DNA from: a virus
Lineage: Duplodnaviria; Heunggongvirae; Uroviricota; Caudoviricetes
DNA: 7,995 bases
Direction: 5' to 3' (one strand)
Virus record (IMG/VR): IMGVR_UViG_2740892422_000008
The translations under genes were made by a program, and so were the position numbers. The notes under the pieces are model-generated. The model did not search any database. It was not told where the DNA came from and saw only the letters and a program-made list of their open reading frames with translations. Below, one piece after another: positions 1-7,995 of this stretch. Each line of letters starts with the position of its first letter. The first letter of the stretch is position 1.

Positions 1-1236
1 CTACGATAACCGCGCATTCAACATAGCTACCTGTTCGTCGTTCATGTCATCAATCCACATACCGTAAATTTCATACACCATCTGCGCAGTTTCATGCCCC
101 ATCTGGCTGGCTATAAATGCCGGGTTCGCTCCTGCCGTCAACAGCCAGCAGGCAAAAGTATGTCGCGTATGGTACGGATTACGGCGGCGAATACCAGCAC
201 GTTTTACTGCTGCATTCCATCTCGCACCCAAACTGCTTACCGAGTAATAAGGTTTCTGTTTTCCGTTACACATCCTGGGCATGAAAACAAAATGCAGTTT
301 TTGCTTTTCAGTTCTGCCGTACTCCCGATGATAAAAAGTGATTTCGCTTTTGCGATGATGCCCGGTCAGTTTGTATTGCTCCTTCAGTGCTTCAAGAGCT
401 GGCTGTAGTAGTGTTACCGTCCGGATCCCCGCATTTGTTTTTGGGGGACCGAACATATCAAGTATCGTCAGGTTTCTTCTGACATTCACAATTCCCTTCT
501 CGAAATCCACATCCTCCCACGCCAGAGCTGCCAGTTCCCCGTGACGAAGCCCGGAGTAAACGGCAAATTTCCACAAGTTCTGGCTCTGTCCTTTTTCACT
601 TTCCATTAATGCATTGAATTCTGTTTTAGATAACGGGTCAGGCTTTATTCTGTTTCGCTGTAATTTTTTTACTCCTTCAAATGGTTTGGTTGATATAAAT
701 CCCGACTGATACGCAAAACGTAACAACGAACAGAGCAGGGCGATATAGTTATCAACTGTGCGCACGGTTCTTCCTTTTTTGTTGGTTCTTGGATTATCCA
801 GGTAAAGCGTTTCTCCATGCAGCAGTTCATTCCGGTAGTTTAAGATATCGCTATAACGAATATGCGATATCGGGGTACTCTCACAAATTATTATCCTGAG
901 TGTTTTTAATTGTGATTTCGTTTTCTTCATTGTGTTTGTTGTTAACTCTGTCTCTTTAATTTTTGTCCAGATATCACAAAGCTCCCCGAACGTTTTTATG
1001 ACCCTCGTTGTCACCATTTTTGCCCCAGTGCTGGACTGGGGAAAACGTCTTAAATACTCAAATTCACCGGAATTGATTTCATGAACTATCAACGCTCTTA
1101 AATTCCCGGCTTTTTTAATGTTACTGTTAGTAACCTCCCAGCCTTTCAATGTTTCCCGACATCGTTTTCCTCGAAACATGAACCAGATGCGAATGTATTT
1201 ACCTCGAATCTCGACACCTGTTGGTAATTTAGACAT
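1..1236 (-). CDS. intR: Tyrosine-type site-specific integrase, Rac prophage IntR-like (411 aa, complete; stop codon at 1-3)
   Basis: Full-length minus-strand ORF with ATG at 1234-1236. The translation matches Rac IntR as I recall it (MSKLPTGVEIRG...). C-terminal catalytic signature of tyrosine recombinases is visible (H-x-x-R in NPYHTRHTF, tyrosine in the VYEIYGMW region). Start sits 1 nt from the xis stop, the usual xis-int arrangement. Confidence 0.92.
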   Translation of the reverse strand: MSKLPTGVEIRGKYIRIWFMFRGKRCRETLKGWEVTNSNIKKAGNLRALIVHEINSGEFEYLRRFPQSSTGAKMVTTRVIKTFGELCDIWTKIKETELTTNTMKKTKSQLKTLRIIICESTPISHIRYSDILNYRNELLHGETLYLDNPRTNKKGRTVRTVDNYIALLCSLLRFAYQSGFISTKPFEGVKKLQRNRIKPDPLSKTEFNALMESEKGQSQNLWKFAVYSGLRHGELAALAWEDVDFEKGIVNVRRNLTILDMFGPPKTNAGIRTVTLLQPALEALKEQYKLTGHHRKSEITFYHREYGRTEKQKLHFVFMPRMCNGKQKPYYSVSSLGARWNAAVKRAGIRRRNPYHTRHTFACWLLTAGANPAFIASQMGHETAQMVYEIYGMWIDDMNDEQVAMLNARLS

Positions 1237-1237
1237 A

Positions 1238-1453
1238 TCATGAGTCTTTGATAAACTGATTTATCTTTGGATAGTTGTACCAGATAATCCCTCGCTTACT
1301 GTCTGGTTTCCCTAAAGGAGATACTCGTTTGAAGTGGAAGCCTTCCACCCAACAGTTCTGGCGGTATGCTTCAATTTGTCTGGCCCCCAGACCAGTGCGA
1401 AGCATCAGGCCGTATTCAACCATCCACTCTTCATTAAAGATTACTTGTGCCAT
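1238..1453 (-). CDS. xisR: Excisionase-like protein (Rac XisR/YdaQ-like), 71 aa
   Basis: ORF immediately upstream of and co-oriented with int. I chose the ATG at 1451-1453 ([15 protein letters not shown]...) because it is preceded by GAGGTG at about 6 nt spacing; the track start at 1477 is a TTG extension. Sequence matches my recollection of K-12 YdaQ. Confidence 0.8.
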
Positions 1454-1504
1454 CGCATCACCTCTGGCAGGCGCCAATGTTAGACTGAAATTGACGCCCG
1501 ATGT

Positions 1505-1520
1505 TGATTATTAATAATCA
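1505..1520. promoter_or_regulatory. Perfect 16-bp AT-rich palindrome TGATTATTAATAATCA in the ydaC-xis spacer (candidate dimeric regulator binding site)
   Basis: Exact dyad symmetry read directly from the sequence, centred 52-67 bp upstream of the xis start codon. Confidence 0.3.
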
Positions 1521-1552
1521 GCTATGAAGTTTTAATTTGAATACAATGCAAT

Positions 1553-1753
1553 TCACGACGACTGAAGTTTCTCGCAATTAAAATTTATCAGTTTTACTTT
1601 CTGCTCTCTGGAAATGCCTGCTTCTTTTTTACCTGAGAGCATTTTTTCGCATTCTGATTTGGTTAATTTTGTTTTTGAGTACCTTGTCCAGTTAGTAGGA
1701 GTGCCACCTTCCTTTTCAATAGTGGCGGTAATTTTATACATGAACACCTCCAT
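1553..1753 (-). CDS. ydaC: YdaC-like small prophage protein of unknown function
   Basis: Minus-strand ORF (…MEVFMYKITATIEKEGGTPTNWTRYSKTKLTKSECEK…) resembling Rac YdaC from memory. Start is ambiguous: ATG at 1753 (66 aa), ATG at 1741 (62 aa, preceded by GGAGG at 5 nt spacing), or ATG at 1813 (86 aa, overlaps ralR by 80 nt). The 3' end of ralR overlaps the 5' region. Confidence 0.65.
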   Translation of the reverse strand: MEVFMYKITATIEKEGGTPTNWTRYSKTKLTKSECEKMLSGKKEAGISREQKVKLINFNCEKLQSS

Positions 1754-1928
1754 TATTATTTCCAGTGGTTCGTTTATTCCATCGTTCGAGTGCTTCTTTT
1801 TCACTTCCACCATAGCCGGTTCGGGATTCGCATCCGTTACACTTCGCGCGGTAATATCCTGAAATGGCTTTCACCGTTACTGATGGACAACCACAAAAAG
1901 GGCATGGTTTGACTTTTTCATACCGCAT
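1734..1928 (-). CDS. ralR: RalR (Lar) restriction-alleviation protein / type I toxin DNase, 64 aa
   Basis: MRYEKVKPCPFCGCPSVTVKAISGYYRAKCNGCESRTGYGGSEKEALERWNKRTTGNNNGGVHV matches my recollection of K-12 RalR. Two CxxC pairs (CPFCGC … CNGC) form a zinc-ribbon-like motif. The track start at 1943 adds 5 aa; the K-12-like start is the ATG at 1928. Confidence 0.85.
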   Translation of the reverse strand: MRYEKVKPCPFCGCPSVTVKAISGYYRAKCNGCESRTGYGGSEKEALERWNKRTTGNNNGGVHV

Positions 1929-1991
1929 TGTCTTTTCTCTCATAAAATAAAATTTTGTGATGGCGGTGAGGCTACACCGCCAAAGTAAATA

Positions 1992-3044
1992 TCAGGAGCC
2001 GATATATTCTGGTTTCATATCTGTCAGTGTCGTTTTATACGCCTCATATAATTCACCCAGATGTGGCCGGGCAGCATTCAGCGTATTTTCCAGAGCAGTA
2101 AATTTTTGTTCTGCTTCTGGATCACCTGAAGAAGGTAGGTCATTTATCATCTTCTCGATACGGGCAATAGCATTGAGACGGTGATGACGCTGAACCACTT
2201 TTCCTTTAAGTTCCGTATAGAGAGCGCCAAGTGTATTTTTATGATCTTCCACTTCCTGGCGAAGTGCTGTTGTTTCCCCGGTGCTTTGTGCCTGCTCAAT
2301 ACGTTCACGGAAAGCATCGATCCAGTTTTCCCCGGCATCCTGCTCAATAATTGTTGTTTCACGTTCCGCGCGGCAAGCGGAAGTGTTTTTATGTTCCTGA
2401 ACCGGATTAATGATTTTTTCCTGTGGCTCGTCCAGTTCGTCCCTGGTGTACACTCCAAGAATCACTTCGGGGCAATAAAGGCGCGCCCAGCGTTTCAGCG
2501 CCAGATAGGCAAGCTGCTGGCGAGGATCGTCGGCCCATAGCGTTGAATTACGTGTTCTGGCCTGCGCCAGAAGTAATTCCAGTACGCGTGGTTTACTTTC
2601 GCCGCGTAGTGTTGCCTGGACACGAACACCGATCCCGTTTTCATCGGCCAGCTTCCAGCCAGGTACACGATATTCTTTCCCTTTGTCGCTCTTCCTGATT
2701 TCAAATTTCCCGATAATTTTTTCCCACGGCCCGAACCAGTCATATTCAATACGCCCGGTTAGCGGCCCACGAGTACTGATTACGGCATTAACCAGTTGCG
2801 CTTCATATCCGAGCACACCATTCACAACGAAAGTTTTCTGAGCTACTGCGTAAGGGTTCATTTGCCACTGCATCGCCTGCATGGTGATGGCCATGCAGTC
2901 TGATGGATTTCCCCGGAGGTGTTCCGGTACAGTAGCCATGCCGGAAGCCATTACCTGGGAAAATGTCTGAATTGCAGCCAGGGACTGAGGGCTGAAAACC
3001 GCAACATTAGAGTTAATATTTTCTTGTTGAGTTAATTCGTTCAT
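1992..3044 (-). CDS. Phage single-strand annealing protein, Bet/Redbeta-like (RecT/Redbeta superfamily), 350 aa, with a ~130-aa helical C-terminal extension
   Basis: ATG at 3042-3044 preceded by GAGGAAGG, 11 nt downstream of the exonuclease stop (translationally coupled pair). Core motifs align by eye to lambda Bet: GNPSDCMAITMQAMQWQMNPY…VNGVLGYE versus GDASDAQFIALLIVANQYGLNPW…VVGVDGW, and KRWARLYCPEVILGVYTRDELDE versus KRMLRHKAMIQCARLAFGFAGIYDKDEAE. It is not the K-12 RecT sequence as I recall it. Confidence 0.72.
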   Translation of the reverse strand: MNELTQQENINSNVAVFSPQSLAAIQTFSQVMASGMATVPEHLRGNPSDCMAITMQAMQWQMNPYAVAQKTFVVNGVLGYEAQLVNAVISTRGPLTGRIEYDWFGPWEKIIGKFEIRKSDKGKEYRVPGWKLADENGIGVRVQATLRGESKPRVLELLLAQARTRNSTLWADDPRQQLAYLALKRWARLYCPEVILGVYTRDELDEPQEKIINPVQEHKNTSACRAERETTIIEQDAGENWIDAFRERIEQAQSTGETTALRQEVEDHKNTLGALYTELKGKVVQRHHRLNAIARIEKMINDLPSSGDPEAEQKFTALENTLNAARPHLGELYEAYKTTLTDMKPEYIGS

Positions 3045-3055
3045 TGTGTCCTTCC

Positions 3056-6000
3056 TCAGATGCTCAGTGCTTCAAGACGACGAAGATCAAAGTCGTTTAA
3101 TTCGTCGGTATAACTTTCGGTAATCGGTGCTGGCCAGTTGTTTGTCTCCAGGGCTTCGTTTATCTGGCGTAGCGTCCGGCGATATTCCTGTCGACCAAGT
3201 TCCAGGAGTTCCTGCGAGGCTTCCACGACTGCCACCCAGTGATAGCCAGCATCTTTGTTGACGAAGATCCAGAAAAATTTGTCCAGATTTGCCACATCGC
3301 AATACATTGCTGCGCTGAGGTGATAATCACGCTCAATAATTTCACGGTGCAGGCGATCTTTCAGTCGTTCCTGTCGCACATAACCGAGGCTGACTGACTT
3401 CACGTCGGCGCAAATGCTTTCGTATGGCAGCCGGATTTCGATATCAGGACGGACCCTGATTTCCAGCCCGGTTTCTTCATCAAACCCGAAATAGCTGATT
3501 TCAGATTTGCGATCCGGGTGGTTGAGTAGCCTTGCTGCATCAGTATTGTTTTGCAGTGCAGCGTGAATATTTTTTGCCTGTTCATACATATCTGAACTGA
3601 TAAACGTTTTCCCGGCGTTTTCTTCTTGCTGGCGTTTTTGCCAGTCCTCCAGGGTAACCAGTTCCGGGCGGATTTTCCGAGCGATTTCGGTTAATTGCTC
3701 TTTCGTGCCACTGATGTTGTAAGGCAAAGATTTAGCACGTTCTTTTTTCGCCAGTTCTGGATCTACAGTTTCAATTTGCTCCAGAAGTTGCTCCCGTGTT
3801 CCACTGGTTTTCAACAGAGGAGGGAGGTTTGCATTGTATTCTCTAATGCAGGCTTTCATTGCCGATGCAGTATGTTTCTCCTCCTCCGGAATACGCCGGA
3901 ATTCCACCGGAAGCGAACCGTAAAGGATGCCTGTTTCTTCGGCTCCAGCACTTACAGACAGTGGCTGTATAAGAGTGCTGTTGTAGCTTTCGATCCACTC
4001 TTTCATCTGCTCTGGTGTCATCAGTGCTGGCAGACTGGCATTGTGTTTTTTAATGATGGCGATCAGTTCGCTAGAAGTAGTAACCACATATTCAGGAACT
4101 GGTACCGGAATGGCATATTCATCAGCGAATTTATCCGTTTCCAGAACATAGCTGTGAATGATCCGCCCACGCAGCAGTGCATCACTTTCCTCGTTCGGAA
4201 TAGTTCCGGCAATGTGCCGTCCGTGGTAATACATCAGGCTGATACGGGCATCCTTCAGCATCGTGCTGCTTATTCCGTTGGCGGAGTGATAAACCTCGTT
4301 CGGGAGGTTTTCATAGCGGCCAGGCTCGAAATATGACGGCCACATGATTTCAGTTGCTACAGGAGCTGACGCTTCACCAGTTTCATCACTGCAATCACGA
4401 TGCGGATCGCTGCCAGCATTCTCATTGTGCGGATGTTCAGCGCCTTCCATTTCCACCGGATCTTTTTCCTTAGCTTCAACCTGATTCTCTTCATCGAATG
4501 TTTCCTGGTATGTTGCGTCGCCCGTCACCGCCCCACAGTCAGGGCAGTTATCTCCGCCAGTCTGACCGCAGGCATTGCAGACTATTTCCGGTTCCTGTTG
4601 CACTACTGGCTCAGGTTGTTTCACATCCGGGCTGGTTTTTTCCGTTTCTGGCTGGTTCTGGTACACAGAATCGCGAGTCTGGATCCCCTTAACCCATTTC
4701 GGATCGTTCGGGTCGCTAATTCCGTCAACAAATTCACCACGTGATGCAGCAAGCAATTTATCGGCATCGACAGGATTTTTTGATGGAATGTTTTTCCGGG
4801 CTTCATGGAGTTCTGCCCGCAGTTCCTGATATTTCGCATCAACAGAATTTACCGGTGACTGAGCATCCAGCGGCTGCGTGTCCTGATGATGTTTAGTTGC
4901 GTCCGGTTCCATTGTTTCAGCCTCTCCCTGTTCATCTGCCGTTGTTCCAGATGGTTGCGGTTTTTCTTCATCATCCTGTTTTCCTTCTTCTGTTACTCGC
5001 TGCGGCATCGGGGCAGAGGAGCGACCGCAGGCAATATCCACGATTTCCGGATCAGGGTTGGCATGATCGGTTTCAGTCAGTACTTTGTTCAGATATTCAG
5101 TGACGTGCGCGGGGGTGACCTCGATCCCAATTGGTGCTTCTTTTACGGACGCAACCACGATGGCGCGGGAATAATCCAGCCCGCCAGGCATGGTGATGAA
5201 TTTGTCGCGGAAAACAGAAAAGGGCGGTTTATTTTCAGCGATAATTTCCTCAATGCGTTTAGCGTGTGCCGGATGAAGGTTATAGATGTCCAGATCCATT
5301 GAACGGGCCAGTACGCCAGTGGCTACGTCGCGCGCCAGTGACGTCAGATCGTGTACGAAACCTTCGCCGCGATCGGTGAGGTTTCCGCCGCCAGCATTAG
5401 CACCGGAAGCCGTGCGAGTGATGTGTGAAACACGATTACCCTTCATCCACTCTTTTGTCAGCAGTCCTCGATCGGTGTAGTCAGCGTTCAGGTATGCTTC
5501 GAAAAAAGCAGTTATCAGTCCCAGGTTTGAATTACCAGGATTAGGGAAAACTTTGTCAGTGTCACGAACCAGTTTGTGGAGTTCGCGAATTTCCAGCGGG
5601 GCGAGCAGGCTGGTTTTGTGGGAAACAGCCAGGGCAGTAACAGCCGGTAGTTCTTCAGCCCGAGCAATGTGTAATGCCTGGAGTCCGTCGCGTGAAACGT
5701 GCGTTACCGGTTTTTCGCTGCCGTGTTGAGCAAGCCAACGAATGGGCAGTTCCTGGCCAGAAATTGGGAGTAGCATATTCTCCTCAATCTCAGTCATGTC
5801 TTCGCCGTTGACGTTGGTATTGCCTTGATAGTGAGCGTTGTCTGGTGCTGCTCCCGGTTTTAGTTCCCATGTCATGGAGTCTTTGCTGAGTTGATAGCGT
5901 TCACTCCAGGTAAAATCGATCTCACCTTCAGCGGGCAGGTCATTAACGACAGGAAAATTCGTGGCAACAGCTTTAAAATAGCTGCTCAGTTTTTTACCTG

Positions 6001-6127
6001 ACTTAACGATCAGGTAGTCCAGAGTGGCACAGGTCGATTCAAAATCGTCACTTGCCCACAGGACGACGTCAGGTTCACCGGATGATTTTTTCGCTTTCCG
6101 TAACAGGAAGAGTGGTTTTGTGCTCAT
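3056..6127 (-). CDS. recE: Exodeoxyribonuclease VIII (RecE-family 5'-3' dsDNA exonuclease), 1023 aa; N-terminal ~585 aa K-12 RecE-like, C-terminal PD-(D/E)XK domain divergent with a repeat insertion
   Basis: ATG at 6125-6127 with GAGGT upstream. N-terminus [26 protein letters not shown]… matches K-12 RecE from memory. The C-terminal domain keeps RecE-type motifs (YH…GIS.S.L.D; IRVRPDIE…ADVK matching the RPD…DVK catalytic core) but is otherwise divergent. Confidence 0.88.
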
Positions 6128-6199
6128 TGTTTTTTAACCTCAACTCAGATTAAAATTCGTTTTGTTCAGTGAATGATCTTGCCGGATACACACTGTTCA

Positions 6200-6222
6200 T
6201 AGCCTGCGCCATACGCAGGCTA
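6200..6222. other. Perfect 9-bp stem / 5-nt loop hairpin in the racC-recE intergenic spacer
   Basis: TAGCCTGCG ccata CGCAGGCTA. Followed on the plus strand by TTTCTTTC, but not by a U-tract on the minus (gene) strand. Confidence 0.3.
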
Positions 6223-6228
6223 TTTCTT

Positions 6229-6504
6229 TCAGATTTCACCTTTTAATTTCATTGCAATCAGAGTTGCCAGAAATCCGGCTTTTTTTTCTGCGGGCAGATT
6301 CTTTCCGATATGCACCAGGCTCATTTTTTTGACACCTTCGTGAAGTGTTTTAACGTTGCCTGATGGACCGTCGATATCAACTACAGTGAATGGGGTTTCT
6401 TTATTTTCTGTTTTAATCACGTAGCCAATACGCTTTCCTTCCAGATTAACTTCGTGAACAATGTCATCAGTAGTTACAACAGTGGCTTCATAACTGGTAA
6501 TCAT
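6229..6504 (-). CDS. racC: RacC prophage protein, 91 aa
   Basis: MITSYEATVVTTDDIVHEVNLEGKRIGYVIKTENKETPFTVVDIDGPSGNVKTL… matches K-12 RacC from memory. ATG at 6502-6504 is preceded by AAGGAG; the track start at 6552 is an upstream extension. Confidence 0.88.
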   Translation of the reverse strand: MITSYEATVVTTDDIVHEVNLEGKRIGYVIKTENKETPFTVVDIDGPSGNVKTLHEGVKKMSLVHIGKNLPAEKKAGFLATLIAMKLKGEI

Positions 6505-6578
6505 GTTTTTCTCCTTAATTAAGGTTGAGCGAATCCCTGCCATTGCTGGCATAAATTCAGTTTCGCATAGTCAGTTAA

Positions 6579-6749
6579 TTAAAGTTCGTGTGCCATCTGG
6601 TCTTTTTCGGCACATATTTCACTACAATATTTTTTCATTTCCGTCGTTGGGATAACTCCACGCATGAAATGAAGTGGTCTTTTAATGCTTTTGCTTTCTT
6701 TAACTTCTTTATCGCAAAGGTGGTAAGCACATTTTATTTTCTTAGTCAT
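6579..6749 (-). CDS. ydaE: YdaE-like small Cys4 zinc-binding protein, 56 aa (absent from the ORF track, below its size cut-off)
   Basis: Manual translation of the minus strand gives [56 protein letters not shown], stop TAA at 6579-6581. Cys pairs C7/C12 and C42/C46. Its ATG (6747-6749) overlaps the kilR stop as ATGA, indicating translational coupling. Position between kilR and racC matches the Rac gene order. Confidence 0.8.
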   Translation of the reverse strand: MTKKIKCAYHLCDKEVKESKSIKRPLHFMRGVIPTTEMKKYCSEICAEKDQMAHEL

Positions 6750-6970
6750 CACCATGACTCCGCCTTTACAGGTAAACCATCACGACCGAGGAAGACTTTA
6801 ATCATGCAGTCAGTAATGCATGTTTTTGTGGTCAGGTTACGAATATAAAGCTTTCGCTTTTTAATATTGTTTGCCGAGGCAATATATGTCCGGCCTTCAT
6901 GAAGAACATAATCGCCAGGAGTCACACACTGACGTGGTATTTCATCAGTTCCGAAGTGATGTGCAATCAT
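6749..6970 (-). CDS. kilR: KilR, Rac prophage cell-division (FtsZ) inhibitor, 73 aa
   Basis: [73 protein letters not shown] matches K-12 KilR from memory. ATG at 6968-6970 is preceded by GGAG at ~7 nt; the track start at 6982 adds 4 aa without a good RBS. Confidence 0.9.
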
Positions 6971-7141
6971 AATTATCTCCATTTTTACAAATGAACTTTG
7001 TTGATGCGGTGCCTGGTGCCTCCAGGTGACTGCAACCAGTTAACAATTACAGTCGGCTTTCCCACCCAAACCAATAAGGACTAACATGACTTTTAACTGT
7101 GCCACGTGCGCTTAGCCGCATTCACCGCATCACAAAACTCA

Positions 7142-7193
7142 CTTTAAAAAGGGCGGACATCAGCCGAACTTCAAGAAAAAAACTGATGCCGCC
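7142..7193 (-). terminator. Candidate intrinsic terminator on the minus strand, upstream of kilR
   Basis: Inverted repeat GGCGG(a)CATCAG (7152-7163) / CTGATGCCGCC (7183-7193): 11 bp with one bulged base and a 19-nt loop. On the minus-strand transcript it is followed directly by CUUUUUAAAGU (plus 7141-7151). No U-tract follows it on the plus strand. Confidence 0.35.
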
Positions 7194-7411
7194 AGGACTA
7201 CACACAGCAATGTCGTTATTTACAACCGGAGGCGCACTCCCACCATTTAAATTTAACAGACAAGACCGACTCTTTATGGATATCGGAAATGCGCCTTCGT
7301 GTTGTGCCCGGTTTTATTTCACCACCTCCGGGCTTCGGTGGTCTCGGCTATACCCCTACAGCGAGAGCTTGTGTTAACATTTCAATACCCTTACAGTTGA
7401 GAGTTATTGAT

Positions 7412-7900
7412 ATGTTGGATATATTTACTCCATTGTTGAAACTTTTTGCTAACGAGCCACTCGAAAGACTTATGTATACGATTATCATTTTTGGTCTCAC
7501 TCTCTGGCTGATACCGAAAGAGTTTACTGTCGCATTCAATGCTTATACTGAAATACCTTGGCTCTTTCAGATTATCGTTTTTGCCTTTTCTTTCGTGGTC
7601 GCCATTTCCTTCTCAAGATTGCGAGCACATATTCAAAAGCATTATTCATTACTACCAGAGCAACGAGTATTGCTTCGTTTATCTGAGAAAGAAATCGCTG
7701 TATTTAAAGATTTCCTTAAAACAGGAAATCTTATTATCACTTCTCCTTGCCGTAACCCGGTTATGAAAAAATTAGAACGGAAGGGCATCATTCAACATCA
7801 GAGTGATAGCGCAAACTGTTCTTATTATCTCGTCACCGAAAAATACTCCCATTTTATGAAGTTATTCTGGAACAGCAGGAGTAGACGTTTTAATCGTTAG
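7412..7900 (+). CDS. sieB: SieB superinfection exclusion protein, 162 aa, two predicted N-terminal transmembrane helices
   Basis: ATG at 7412 (MLDIFTPLLKLFANEPLERLMYTIIIFGLTLWLIPKEF…), stop TAG at 7898-7900. Matches Rac SieB from memory. Hydrophobic segments at about aa 21-36 and 48-67. The track start at 7289 is a non-ATG upstream extension. Confidence 0.88.
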   Translation: MLDIFTPLLKLFANEPLERLMYTIIIFGLTLWLIPKEFTVAFNAYTEIPWLFQIIVFAFSFVVAISFSRLRAHIQKHYSLLPEQRVLLRLSEKEIAVFKDFLKTGNLIITSPCRNPVMKKLERKGIIQHQSDSANCSYYLVTEKYSHFMKLFWNSRSRRFNR

Positions 7901-7902
7901 CT

Positions 7903-7925
7903 GGTGATGCTGCCAACTTACTGAT
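7903..7925 (+). repeat. IS1 left terminal inverted repeat (IRL, ~23 bp)
   Basis: GGTGATGCTGCCAACTTACTGAT, the canonical IS1 IRL. The matching IRR lies outside the window. Confidence 0.85.
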
Positions 7926-7957
7926 TTAGTGTATGATGGTGTTTTTGAGGTGCTCCA

Positions 7958-7995
7958 GTGGCTTCTGTTTCTATCAGCTGTCCCTCCTGTTCAGC
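7958..7995 (+). CDS. insA: IS1 InsA transposition regulator, 5' fragment (GTG start; continues beyond the window)
   Basis: GTG at 7958 followed by codons for ASVSISCPSCS…, the known InsA N-terminus. Only 12 codons are inside the window. Confidence 0.8.
   Translation, partial: MASVSISCPSCS

Follow-up and report, generated by a model that had tools for sequence, protein, structure and literature searches.

The stretch of 7,995 nucleotides analysed here (IMG/VR record IMGVR_UViG_2740892422_000008, Caudoviricetes; hereafter the window) corresponds to the left arm of an Escherichia coli prophage of the Rac type integrated at ttcA, and its recE gene (exodeoxyribonuclease VIII; 3056-6127, like its partner gene on the minus strand) is a chimera when compared with the recE gene of E. 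coli K-12. The first 585 of its 1023 codons (4373-6127) are of the K-12 Rac type, while aa 586-1023 (3059-4372) constitute a divergent RecE-type PD-(D/E)XK nuclease domain. Together with the entire gene of the RecT-family partner, the nuclease domain is encoded in a block (1983-4357) that differs from the K-12 Rac prophage. Very probably, phage-type modular recombination has produced this allele of the recET module of the Rac prophage. Judged by its sequence, the pair looks like a functional RecE/RecT pair that is of the known Gifsy type and is set in a Rac backbone. The allele is already annotated as recE/RecT-family in RefSeq (WP_032084365.1 for RecE), and it represents ordinary phage module shuffling at a joint that has been reused remarkably often. 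Against the NCBIfam exonuclease VIII equivalog NF007259 the full-length protein scores 1517 bits (cutoff 1269), and the C-terminal 438 residues alone still score 340 bits (E=2.8e-101).

The N-terminal region aligns to K-12 RecE without gaps, with 570 of the 585 residues being identical (97.4%). An earlier note, made from the letters of this DNA only, had stated this near-identity and had placed a breakpoint inside the gene at the boundary to the nuclease region. Both are borne out by the pairwise alignment. From residue 586 on, directly after the motif ETGE, the identity collapses to ~25-29% (BLASTP) in two blocks of the nuclease core, which excludes uniform identity along the protein, and the span that the note had given for the divergent part, 3059-4372, is exactly that of aa 586-1023. 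At the DNA level, positions 1-1982 and 4358-7902 are 95.9% and 97.7% identical to the K-12 Rac prophage, while the 2375 bp in between (1983-4357) do not have any blastn match to K-12 and stand in for 1640 bp there (2978-4617 of the K-12 locus L001). The right-hand joint (4358-4372) is located just past the codons for ...DETGE (aa 582-585), and blastn homology to K-12 starts at 4358. In segments of 100 nt, the identity to K-12 increases from 45-57% (starts 4201-4286) to 78% (start 4336) and 96% (start 4386). Because a sequence comparison is deterministic, chance is not an issue for this drop. The flank next to the joint (4386-4636, about 250 nt) is ~95% identical to K-12 and the sequence beyond it 97-100%, a pattern that fits a crossover within homologous sequence of a related donor.

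The nuclease domain has kept the signatures of its family. The motifs listed in the earlier note are present as YHSANGIS (613-620), IIHSYVLE (656-663), RVRPD (891-895), CADVK (906-910), and NNWPA (996-1000), and Pfam reports a PDDEXK-like DUF3799 match at aa 836-1000. Among the solved structures, the only sequence match to the domain is K-12 RecE (PDB 3H4R, E=2e-7). A first structure model, based on 15 close homologs, had a poor core (pLDDT 62) and a Foldseek search with it gave nothing meaningful. The AlphaFold model obtained with 100 diverse homologs reached a pLDDT of 95.8 and a pTM of 0.79, and shows a C-terminal PD-(D/E)XK fold like that of 3H4R. The next matches beyond 3H4R are MGME1, Cas4, the AdnAB/RecB nuclease domains, LHK-Exo, and lambda Exo. 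The earlier note had made its claim depend on this fold, which is thus retained together with the catalytic residues. His658 (4154-4156) is aligned to H652 of K-12 RecE, and the active-site stretch at 3398-3502 contributes E876, D895 (of RPD), and D908 and K910 (of DVK). In the 100-sequence alignment H658, E876, D895, and D908 are invariant and K910 is nearly invariant (E291/D310/D323 and K325 in domain numbering). D895, D908, and K910 correspond to D748, D759, and K761 in K-12, where the PD-DXK site H652/D748/D759/K761, including the role of H652, has been described (review, PMC11611040). The His/Asp/Asp/Lys active site is therefore shared with K-12 RecE. At the sequence level the domain did not match the Lambda Exo / YqaJ family. 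Lambda Exo and Red-beta belong to different families, Lambda Exo being a single-domain trimer with a Glu in place of the RecE His and without an N-terminal extension.

Compared with that of the 866-aa K-12 RecE, the nuclease domain is 157 aa longer, and most conspicuous is a helical-repeat insertion of ~140 extra residues between the two core halves (about aa 682-840, 3608-4084), which in the alignment takes the place of the K-12 loop 665-698. It is all-helical, has a pLDDT above 90, and was confidently modelled in both structure predictions. Internal helix-linker-helix repeats were detected with hhalign, residues 680-725 matching 748-800 with a probability of 97% and 748-800 matching 801-841 with 95%. 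In the 100 homologs the segments between the core halves cluster at ~60-67, 94-111, and 203-210 residues, with rarer intermediates of 137, 156, and 175-184 residues and longer segments of 224 and 231. Such stepwise length classes are expected if the copy number of a unit of ~35-40 aa changes. A structure search with the insertion did not find any structural relative. Given that residues 665-698 of K-12 RecE have been described as DNA-capturing loops (PMC11611040), an insertion at this site suggests that the DNA-capturing rim is enlarged.

The RecT-family single-strand annealing protein (350 aa, 1992-3044) is encoded directly downstream in the same operon. Its start codon is preceded by GGAAGGA and separated from the recE stop by 11 nt, while recE and recT overlap by 8 nt in K-12. 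The earlier note had regarded the partner as a non-RecT protein. This is not correct, because the partner matches the Pfam RecT model PF03837 (147.5 bits, gathering cutoff 24, E=4.6e-43; core envelope aa 30-209, 2418-2957), as do the RecT proteins of K-12, Gifsy-2, and Rac-SA53. It does belong to a different subfamily, phrog_561 (E=1e-145), while K-12 RecT belongs to phrog_148. The NCBIfam models NF007351 and TIGR00616, to which K-12 RecT scores 464 and 416 bits, do not match the partner, BLASTP does not reveal similarity to K-12 RecT (E=0.36), and a phmmer search against solved structures was negative. In addition, the partner differs from K-12 RecT by a C-terminal tail of ~110 aa. The nuclease domain of K-12 RecE matches PHROG 561 as well, because this family was modelled on fusions of both proteins. 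Such a fused RecE-nuclease/RecT is encoded by phiV10 (L010, 1616-3376), whose RecT core shares 61% identity with that of the window and which lacks the tail.

Close relatives of the module are found in several phages. Rac-SA53 and Actinobacillus phage pPE4 have nuclease domains of 97.7% and 97.3% identity, respectively, and those of Gifsy-1/2, HK225, mEp237, SPN3UB, FSL SP-016, PHB10, and several Klebsiella phages are 50-52% identical. The RecT partners of these phages run in parallel with 49-64% identity, and 100% in pPE4. The RecE proteins of Gifsy-1/2, HK225, mEp237, and SPN3UB share the inter-core segment of ~206 aa and are 51-52% identical over 98% of the domain, and the accompanying RecT proteins are tailed as well (~49% identity, ending in ...MKPEY). 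The RecE proteins of this type (961-1129 aa) also have a long N-terminal region with an Exonuc_VIII domain. However, this region is only 29-41% identical to that of the window, which is of the K-12 Rac type. The window protein is thus a hybrid of the K-12 Rac and Gifsy-type lineages. A third allele at the same site is of the Rac-SA53 (KU052037)/STEC719 type and shares the nuclease domain, the ETGE joint, and the attachment site, but has a RecE of 1048 aa with other N-terminal patches and another RecT core (~58% identical, tail ~79%). Compared with Rac-SA53 the N-terminal region of the window is patchy: positions 5474-5830 are without nucleotide match, and the segments 4540-4660, 4720-4780, and 4900-4960 are only 72-87% identical. 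The deposited pPE4 genome (PP818812.1, 'Actinobacillus phage vB_Apl-pPE4'), with its RecT of 100% and RecE nuclease domain of 97.3% identity to the window allele, suggests either a Rac-like phage derived from E. coli or a mis-assigned host. In complete E. coli genomes, the window block was identified in 193 of 5426 (159 at >=80% coverage), always on the chromosome. The view that the module is poorly described holds in part only. The genes themselves are annotated in RefSeq, are present in Rac-SA53 and in the 193 genomes, and belong to the type known from Gifsy-1/2, HK225, and mEp237; a paper analysing the joint was not found.

The earlier note had also proposed that the catalytic domain and the annealing protein were replaced together. 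Against K-12 this is what is seen, namely one contiguous block of 2375 bp. The population behaves differently. In 80 IMG/VR loci nuclease domains of 96-100% amino acid identity are joined to N-termini that are 55-100% identical to that of the window, and to two RecT types, and the units of exchange must therefore be smaller than the single block visible against K-12. A presumed third RecT type (H55) was rejected, as it is just a deletion derivative. In E. coli E300010 (L006, 5010-6591) we observed a deletion derivative of the window allele in which an internal deletion has joined a truncated recE with the central part of the recT-family gene, both being annotated as pseudogenes. The block also does not establish which side is the recombinant, as it could equally be K-12. 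It is indeed quite possible, although somewhat short of even, that the polarity is reversed, with the long nuclease and the tailed RecT being older in Rac-like phages and K-12 Rac having acquired a short nuclease and a short RecT. In Gifsy-2 and HK225 the long nuclease follows a long N-terminus that is homologous to that of the window (41% and 29-33% identity, respectively), many representatives combine a long N-terminus with the 206-aa inter-core segment, and the joint-proximal flank would have its ~95% identity over ~250 nt under either polarity. However, the K-12 block is nine times commoner in complete E. coli genomes (1751 compared to 193), and long N-termini with short inter-core segments exist elsewhere (P0169, P0192, P0196). 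The three-way comparison of the window, K-12, and Rac-SA53 near the joint is uninformative, Rac-SA53 having its own patches there, and does not help an acquisition by K-12 either.

The window allele could also be a relic that is decaying in a defective prophage, its reading frame looking intact but having lost its function. Against this, we obtained for the nuclease domain a dN/dS ratio of 0.11 with Rac-SA53 and of 0.07 with a relative of 86% identity, indicating strong purifying selection. Moreover, the frame of 1023 codons is intact, every catalytic residue has been kept, and the module is present in the deposited phage genome of Rac-SA53. It is true that Rac is defective in K-12, that some carriers have a split or insertion sequence (IS)-interrupted gene (H11), 'PD-(D/E)XK nuclease-like' fragments, or the deletion mentioned above, and that the N-terminal region with a dN/dS of 0.46-0.56 is under much weaker constraint than the nuclease domain. 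We nevertheless consider a relic improbable. An in-place divergence of the C-terminal domain by rapid evolution and without recombination has in its favour the common ancestry shown by the residual 25-29% identity, but is refuted by the discrete boundaries, where at either end ~20 nt separate an identity of 96-100% from none that can be detected, and by modules of 97-98% identity on different N-termini and RecT cores. There was nothing in favour of an assembly or sequencing artefact, which is ruled out by the presence of the same arrangement in the 159 complete genomes, which stem from a variety of hosts and countries, and by 100% identity of nt 1-7902 in E. coli RM10740 and two further complete genomes.

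The tail of the annealase (aa 239-349, 1998-2330, ending in ...LTDMKPEYIGS), delineated with a tail hidden Markov model (HMM), is a candidate for a partner-matching module. Viral loci with nucleases of the long type and of the K-12 type were gathered from IMG/VR using the 15-sequence alignment and the K-12 domain, respectively, as queries. A homolog of the tail is present in the next open reading frame in 79 of the 79 informative long-type loci and in none of the 80 K-12-type loci. Four of the tailed loci (e.g. L058) have a K-12-RecT-like core (phrog_148, 33% identity to K-12 RecT, E about 2e-22), and the core of another one (L077) belongs to phrog_3657, a family of unknown function, and does not have a Pfam match. 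Altogether the tail was seen on at least four different annealase cores beside this nuclease clade. Eight independent lineages were sampled in addition and scanned with the tail HMM. The tail accompanies the enterobacterial Gifsy/Rac-like nucleases, including one with an inter-core segment of only 108 aa (L175), and is absent beside distant nucleases with segments of 137, 175, and 207 aa. It thus tracks the enterobacterial nuclease clade and not the insertion, and a docking of the RecT tail on the RecE insertion was rejected for the same reason. By analogy to the C-terminal domain of Red-beta and lambda Exo, the tail might act as a partner-matching adaptor.

The N-terminal region of RecE contains the Exonuc_VIII domain (PF06630, aa 2-178, 5594-6124, E=3.2e-97) and, in the linker, a zinc-ribbon-like CxxC...CxxC motif (aa 517-532, 4532-4579; read from the sequence), which is conserved in K-12 RecE and in DnaQ-type proteins. 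The N-terminus of full-length RecE is known to aid linear-linear recombination. The linker segment 4358-5000 matches 4388 of the 5426 genomes, mostly in genes annotated as 'exonuclease' or '3'-5' exonuclease'. Two examples from Qin-type prophages beside rspB (L180, 2885-5356, and L181, 2897-5335) encode proteins of 823 and 812 aa (WP_000102147.1 for the 812-aa type), one of which is 57% identical to aa 50-590 of the window RecE. Both share the Exonuc_VIII domain, the CxxC...CxxC linker, and the end of homology at ETGE, but continue with a DnaQ/Rv2179c-like 3'-5' exonuclease domain (PF16473, E about 2e-67) instead of a PD-(D/E)XK domain. No annealase gene is present downstream of either of the two genes. 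The nucleotide homology between the window and these loci stops at 4363 and 4362, at most 5 nt from the joint with K-12, and the DnaQ-type module was found in 4069 of the 5426 complete E. coli genomes. The DETGE joint therefore leads to a short PD-(D/E)XK domain in K-12, to a long PD-(D/E)XK domain with helical-repeat arms in the window, and to a DnaQ-like domain in the Qin-type proteins. In other words, three nuclease domains of two folds and of opposite polarity are grafted at one position in E. coli prophages. A 2025 survey of lambdoid Rec systems lists DnaQ-like nucleases in its main text, the shared RecE N-terminus being unmentioned there (PMC12315714). Taking all this together, it could be, and we put this forward tentatively, that the RecE N-terminus and linker form a scaffold that accepts any nuclease, the swap joint being fixed directly after DETGE, and that the annealase tail is a portable adaptor fitting whatever annealase core to this nuclease clade.

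How the pair would work can be outlined from K-12 RecET. The nuclease domain, presumably assembled into a ring, would degrade the 5' strand from the ends of double-stranded DNA like K-12 RecE, with the helical-repeat insertion at the presumed DNA-capturing loops probably enlarging the DNA-binding rim. The RecT-family partner would coat the remaining 3' single strand and anneal it to a complementary strand. That nuclease and annealase differ together from K-12 may be due to a specific protein contact that would tie each exonuclease to its own annealase. The best candidate for this contact is the C-terminal tail of the annealase, as it follows the nuclease clade whatever the core. In RecET the exonuclease and annealase steps are coupled via protein-protein interaction (review PMC11611040, citing Muyrers 2000), and recombineering with double-stranded DNA needs both members of a specific pair (PMC11611040). 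RecE from aa 588 together with recT has been used experimentally as the minimal unit (PMC3945230). The natural joint at aa 585/586 coincides with this cut as well as with the boundary of the nuclease domain given in the review (PMC11611040). A shuffling of partner-interaction domains was regarded as likely in the lambdoid Rec survey but left unanalysed (PMC12315714).

Several observations weigh against this outline. The predicted structure is that of a monomer, and the ring oligomer and the contact to the partner are outside the model. K-12 recET is silent unless activated, and the window allele may thus rarely be expressed in lysogens. The similarity of the insertion to SAP/HeH motifs is below significance (Pfam E=0.075-0.1) and suggestive at most. 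The 80 K-12-type control loci are essentially one lineage, and the link between tail and nuclease consists in co-occurrence within related enterobacterial modules, the tail being absent beside the distant nucleases. The comparison with Rac-SA53 does not favour the window as the recombinant any more than K-12.

The remaining genes of the window are arranged as in the Rac prophage of K-12, with which the window shares the attachment site at ttcA, the gene order, and the position of the annealase gene. The minus strand encodes intR, xisR, a DUF1187 gene, ralR, the recT-family gene, recE, a racC-like gene, ydaE, and kilR, and the plus strand sieB. The hairpin GGCGGTG-AGGCTA-CACCGCC (1962-1981) is found between the recT-family gene and ralR, downstream of the recT-family stop. 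In the alignment of the junction it is conserved with respect to K-12, only the loop being different, and the left edge of the swapped block is located just beyond it. A terminator scan did not call a terminator here. The hairpin might act in RNA processing or stability, or might be a conserved linker that recombination makes use of. The RalA antitoxin small RNA is encoded on the plus strand (1557-1735; Rfam RF02694, 212.7 bits) and overlaps the DUF1187 gene and the 3' end of ralR. As it runs antisense to the minus-strand gene ralR (1734-1928), the window has an intact type I RalR/RalA toxin-antitoxin pair. The final 93 nt of the window (7903-7995) belong to the end of an IS1 element that was inserted directly after the sieB stop codon, and because of this end the whole window has tens of thousands of places in BLAST searches. 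The sieB gene and an IS1 end were found in one joined place in only two complete genomes, the pieces being about 515 bp apart, and an identical junction was not confirmed.

The window provides a natural confirmation that the RecE nuclease domain together with RecT is an evolutionary as well as a functional unit. It points to another RecET pair that is native to E. coli, intact, and under selection, and that could be tried for recombineering, also with the full-length N-terminus. The tail of the annealase is a concrete and testable candidate for the determinant of exonuclease-annealase specificity, and the RecE N-terminal domain becomes accessible to study through the single joint that nucleases of opposite polarity have reused. 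If the scaffold and adaptor reading is true, the function of the RecE N-terminus would be independent of which strand is degraded, and the partner specificity of RecET would be carried by a small, transferable annealase tail.

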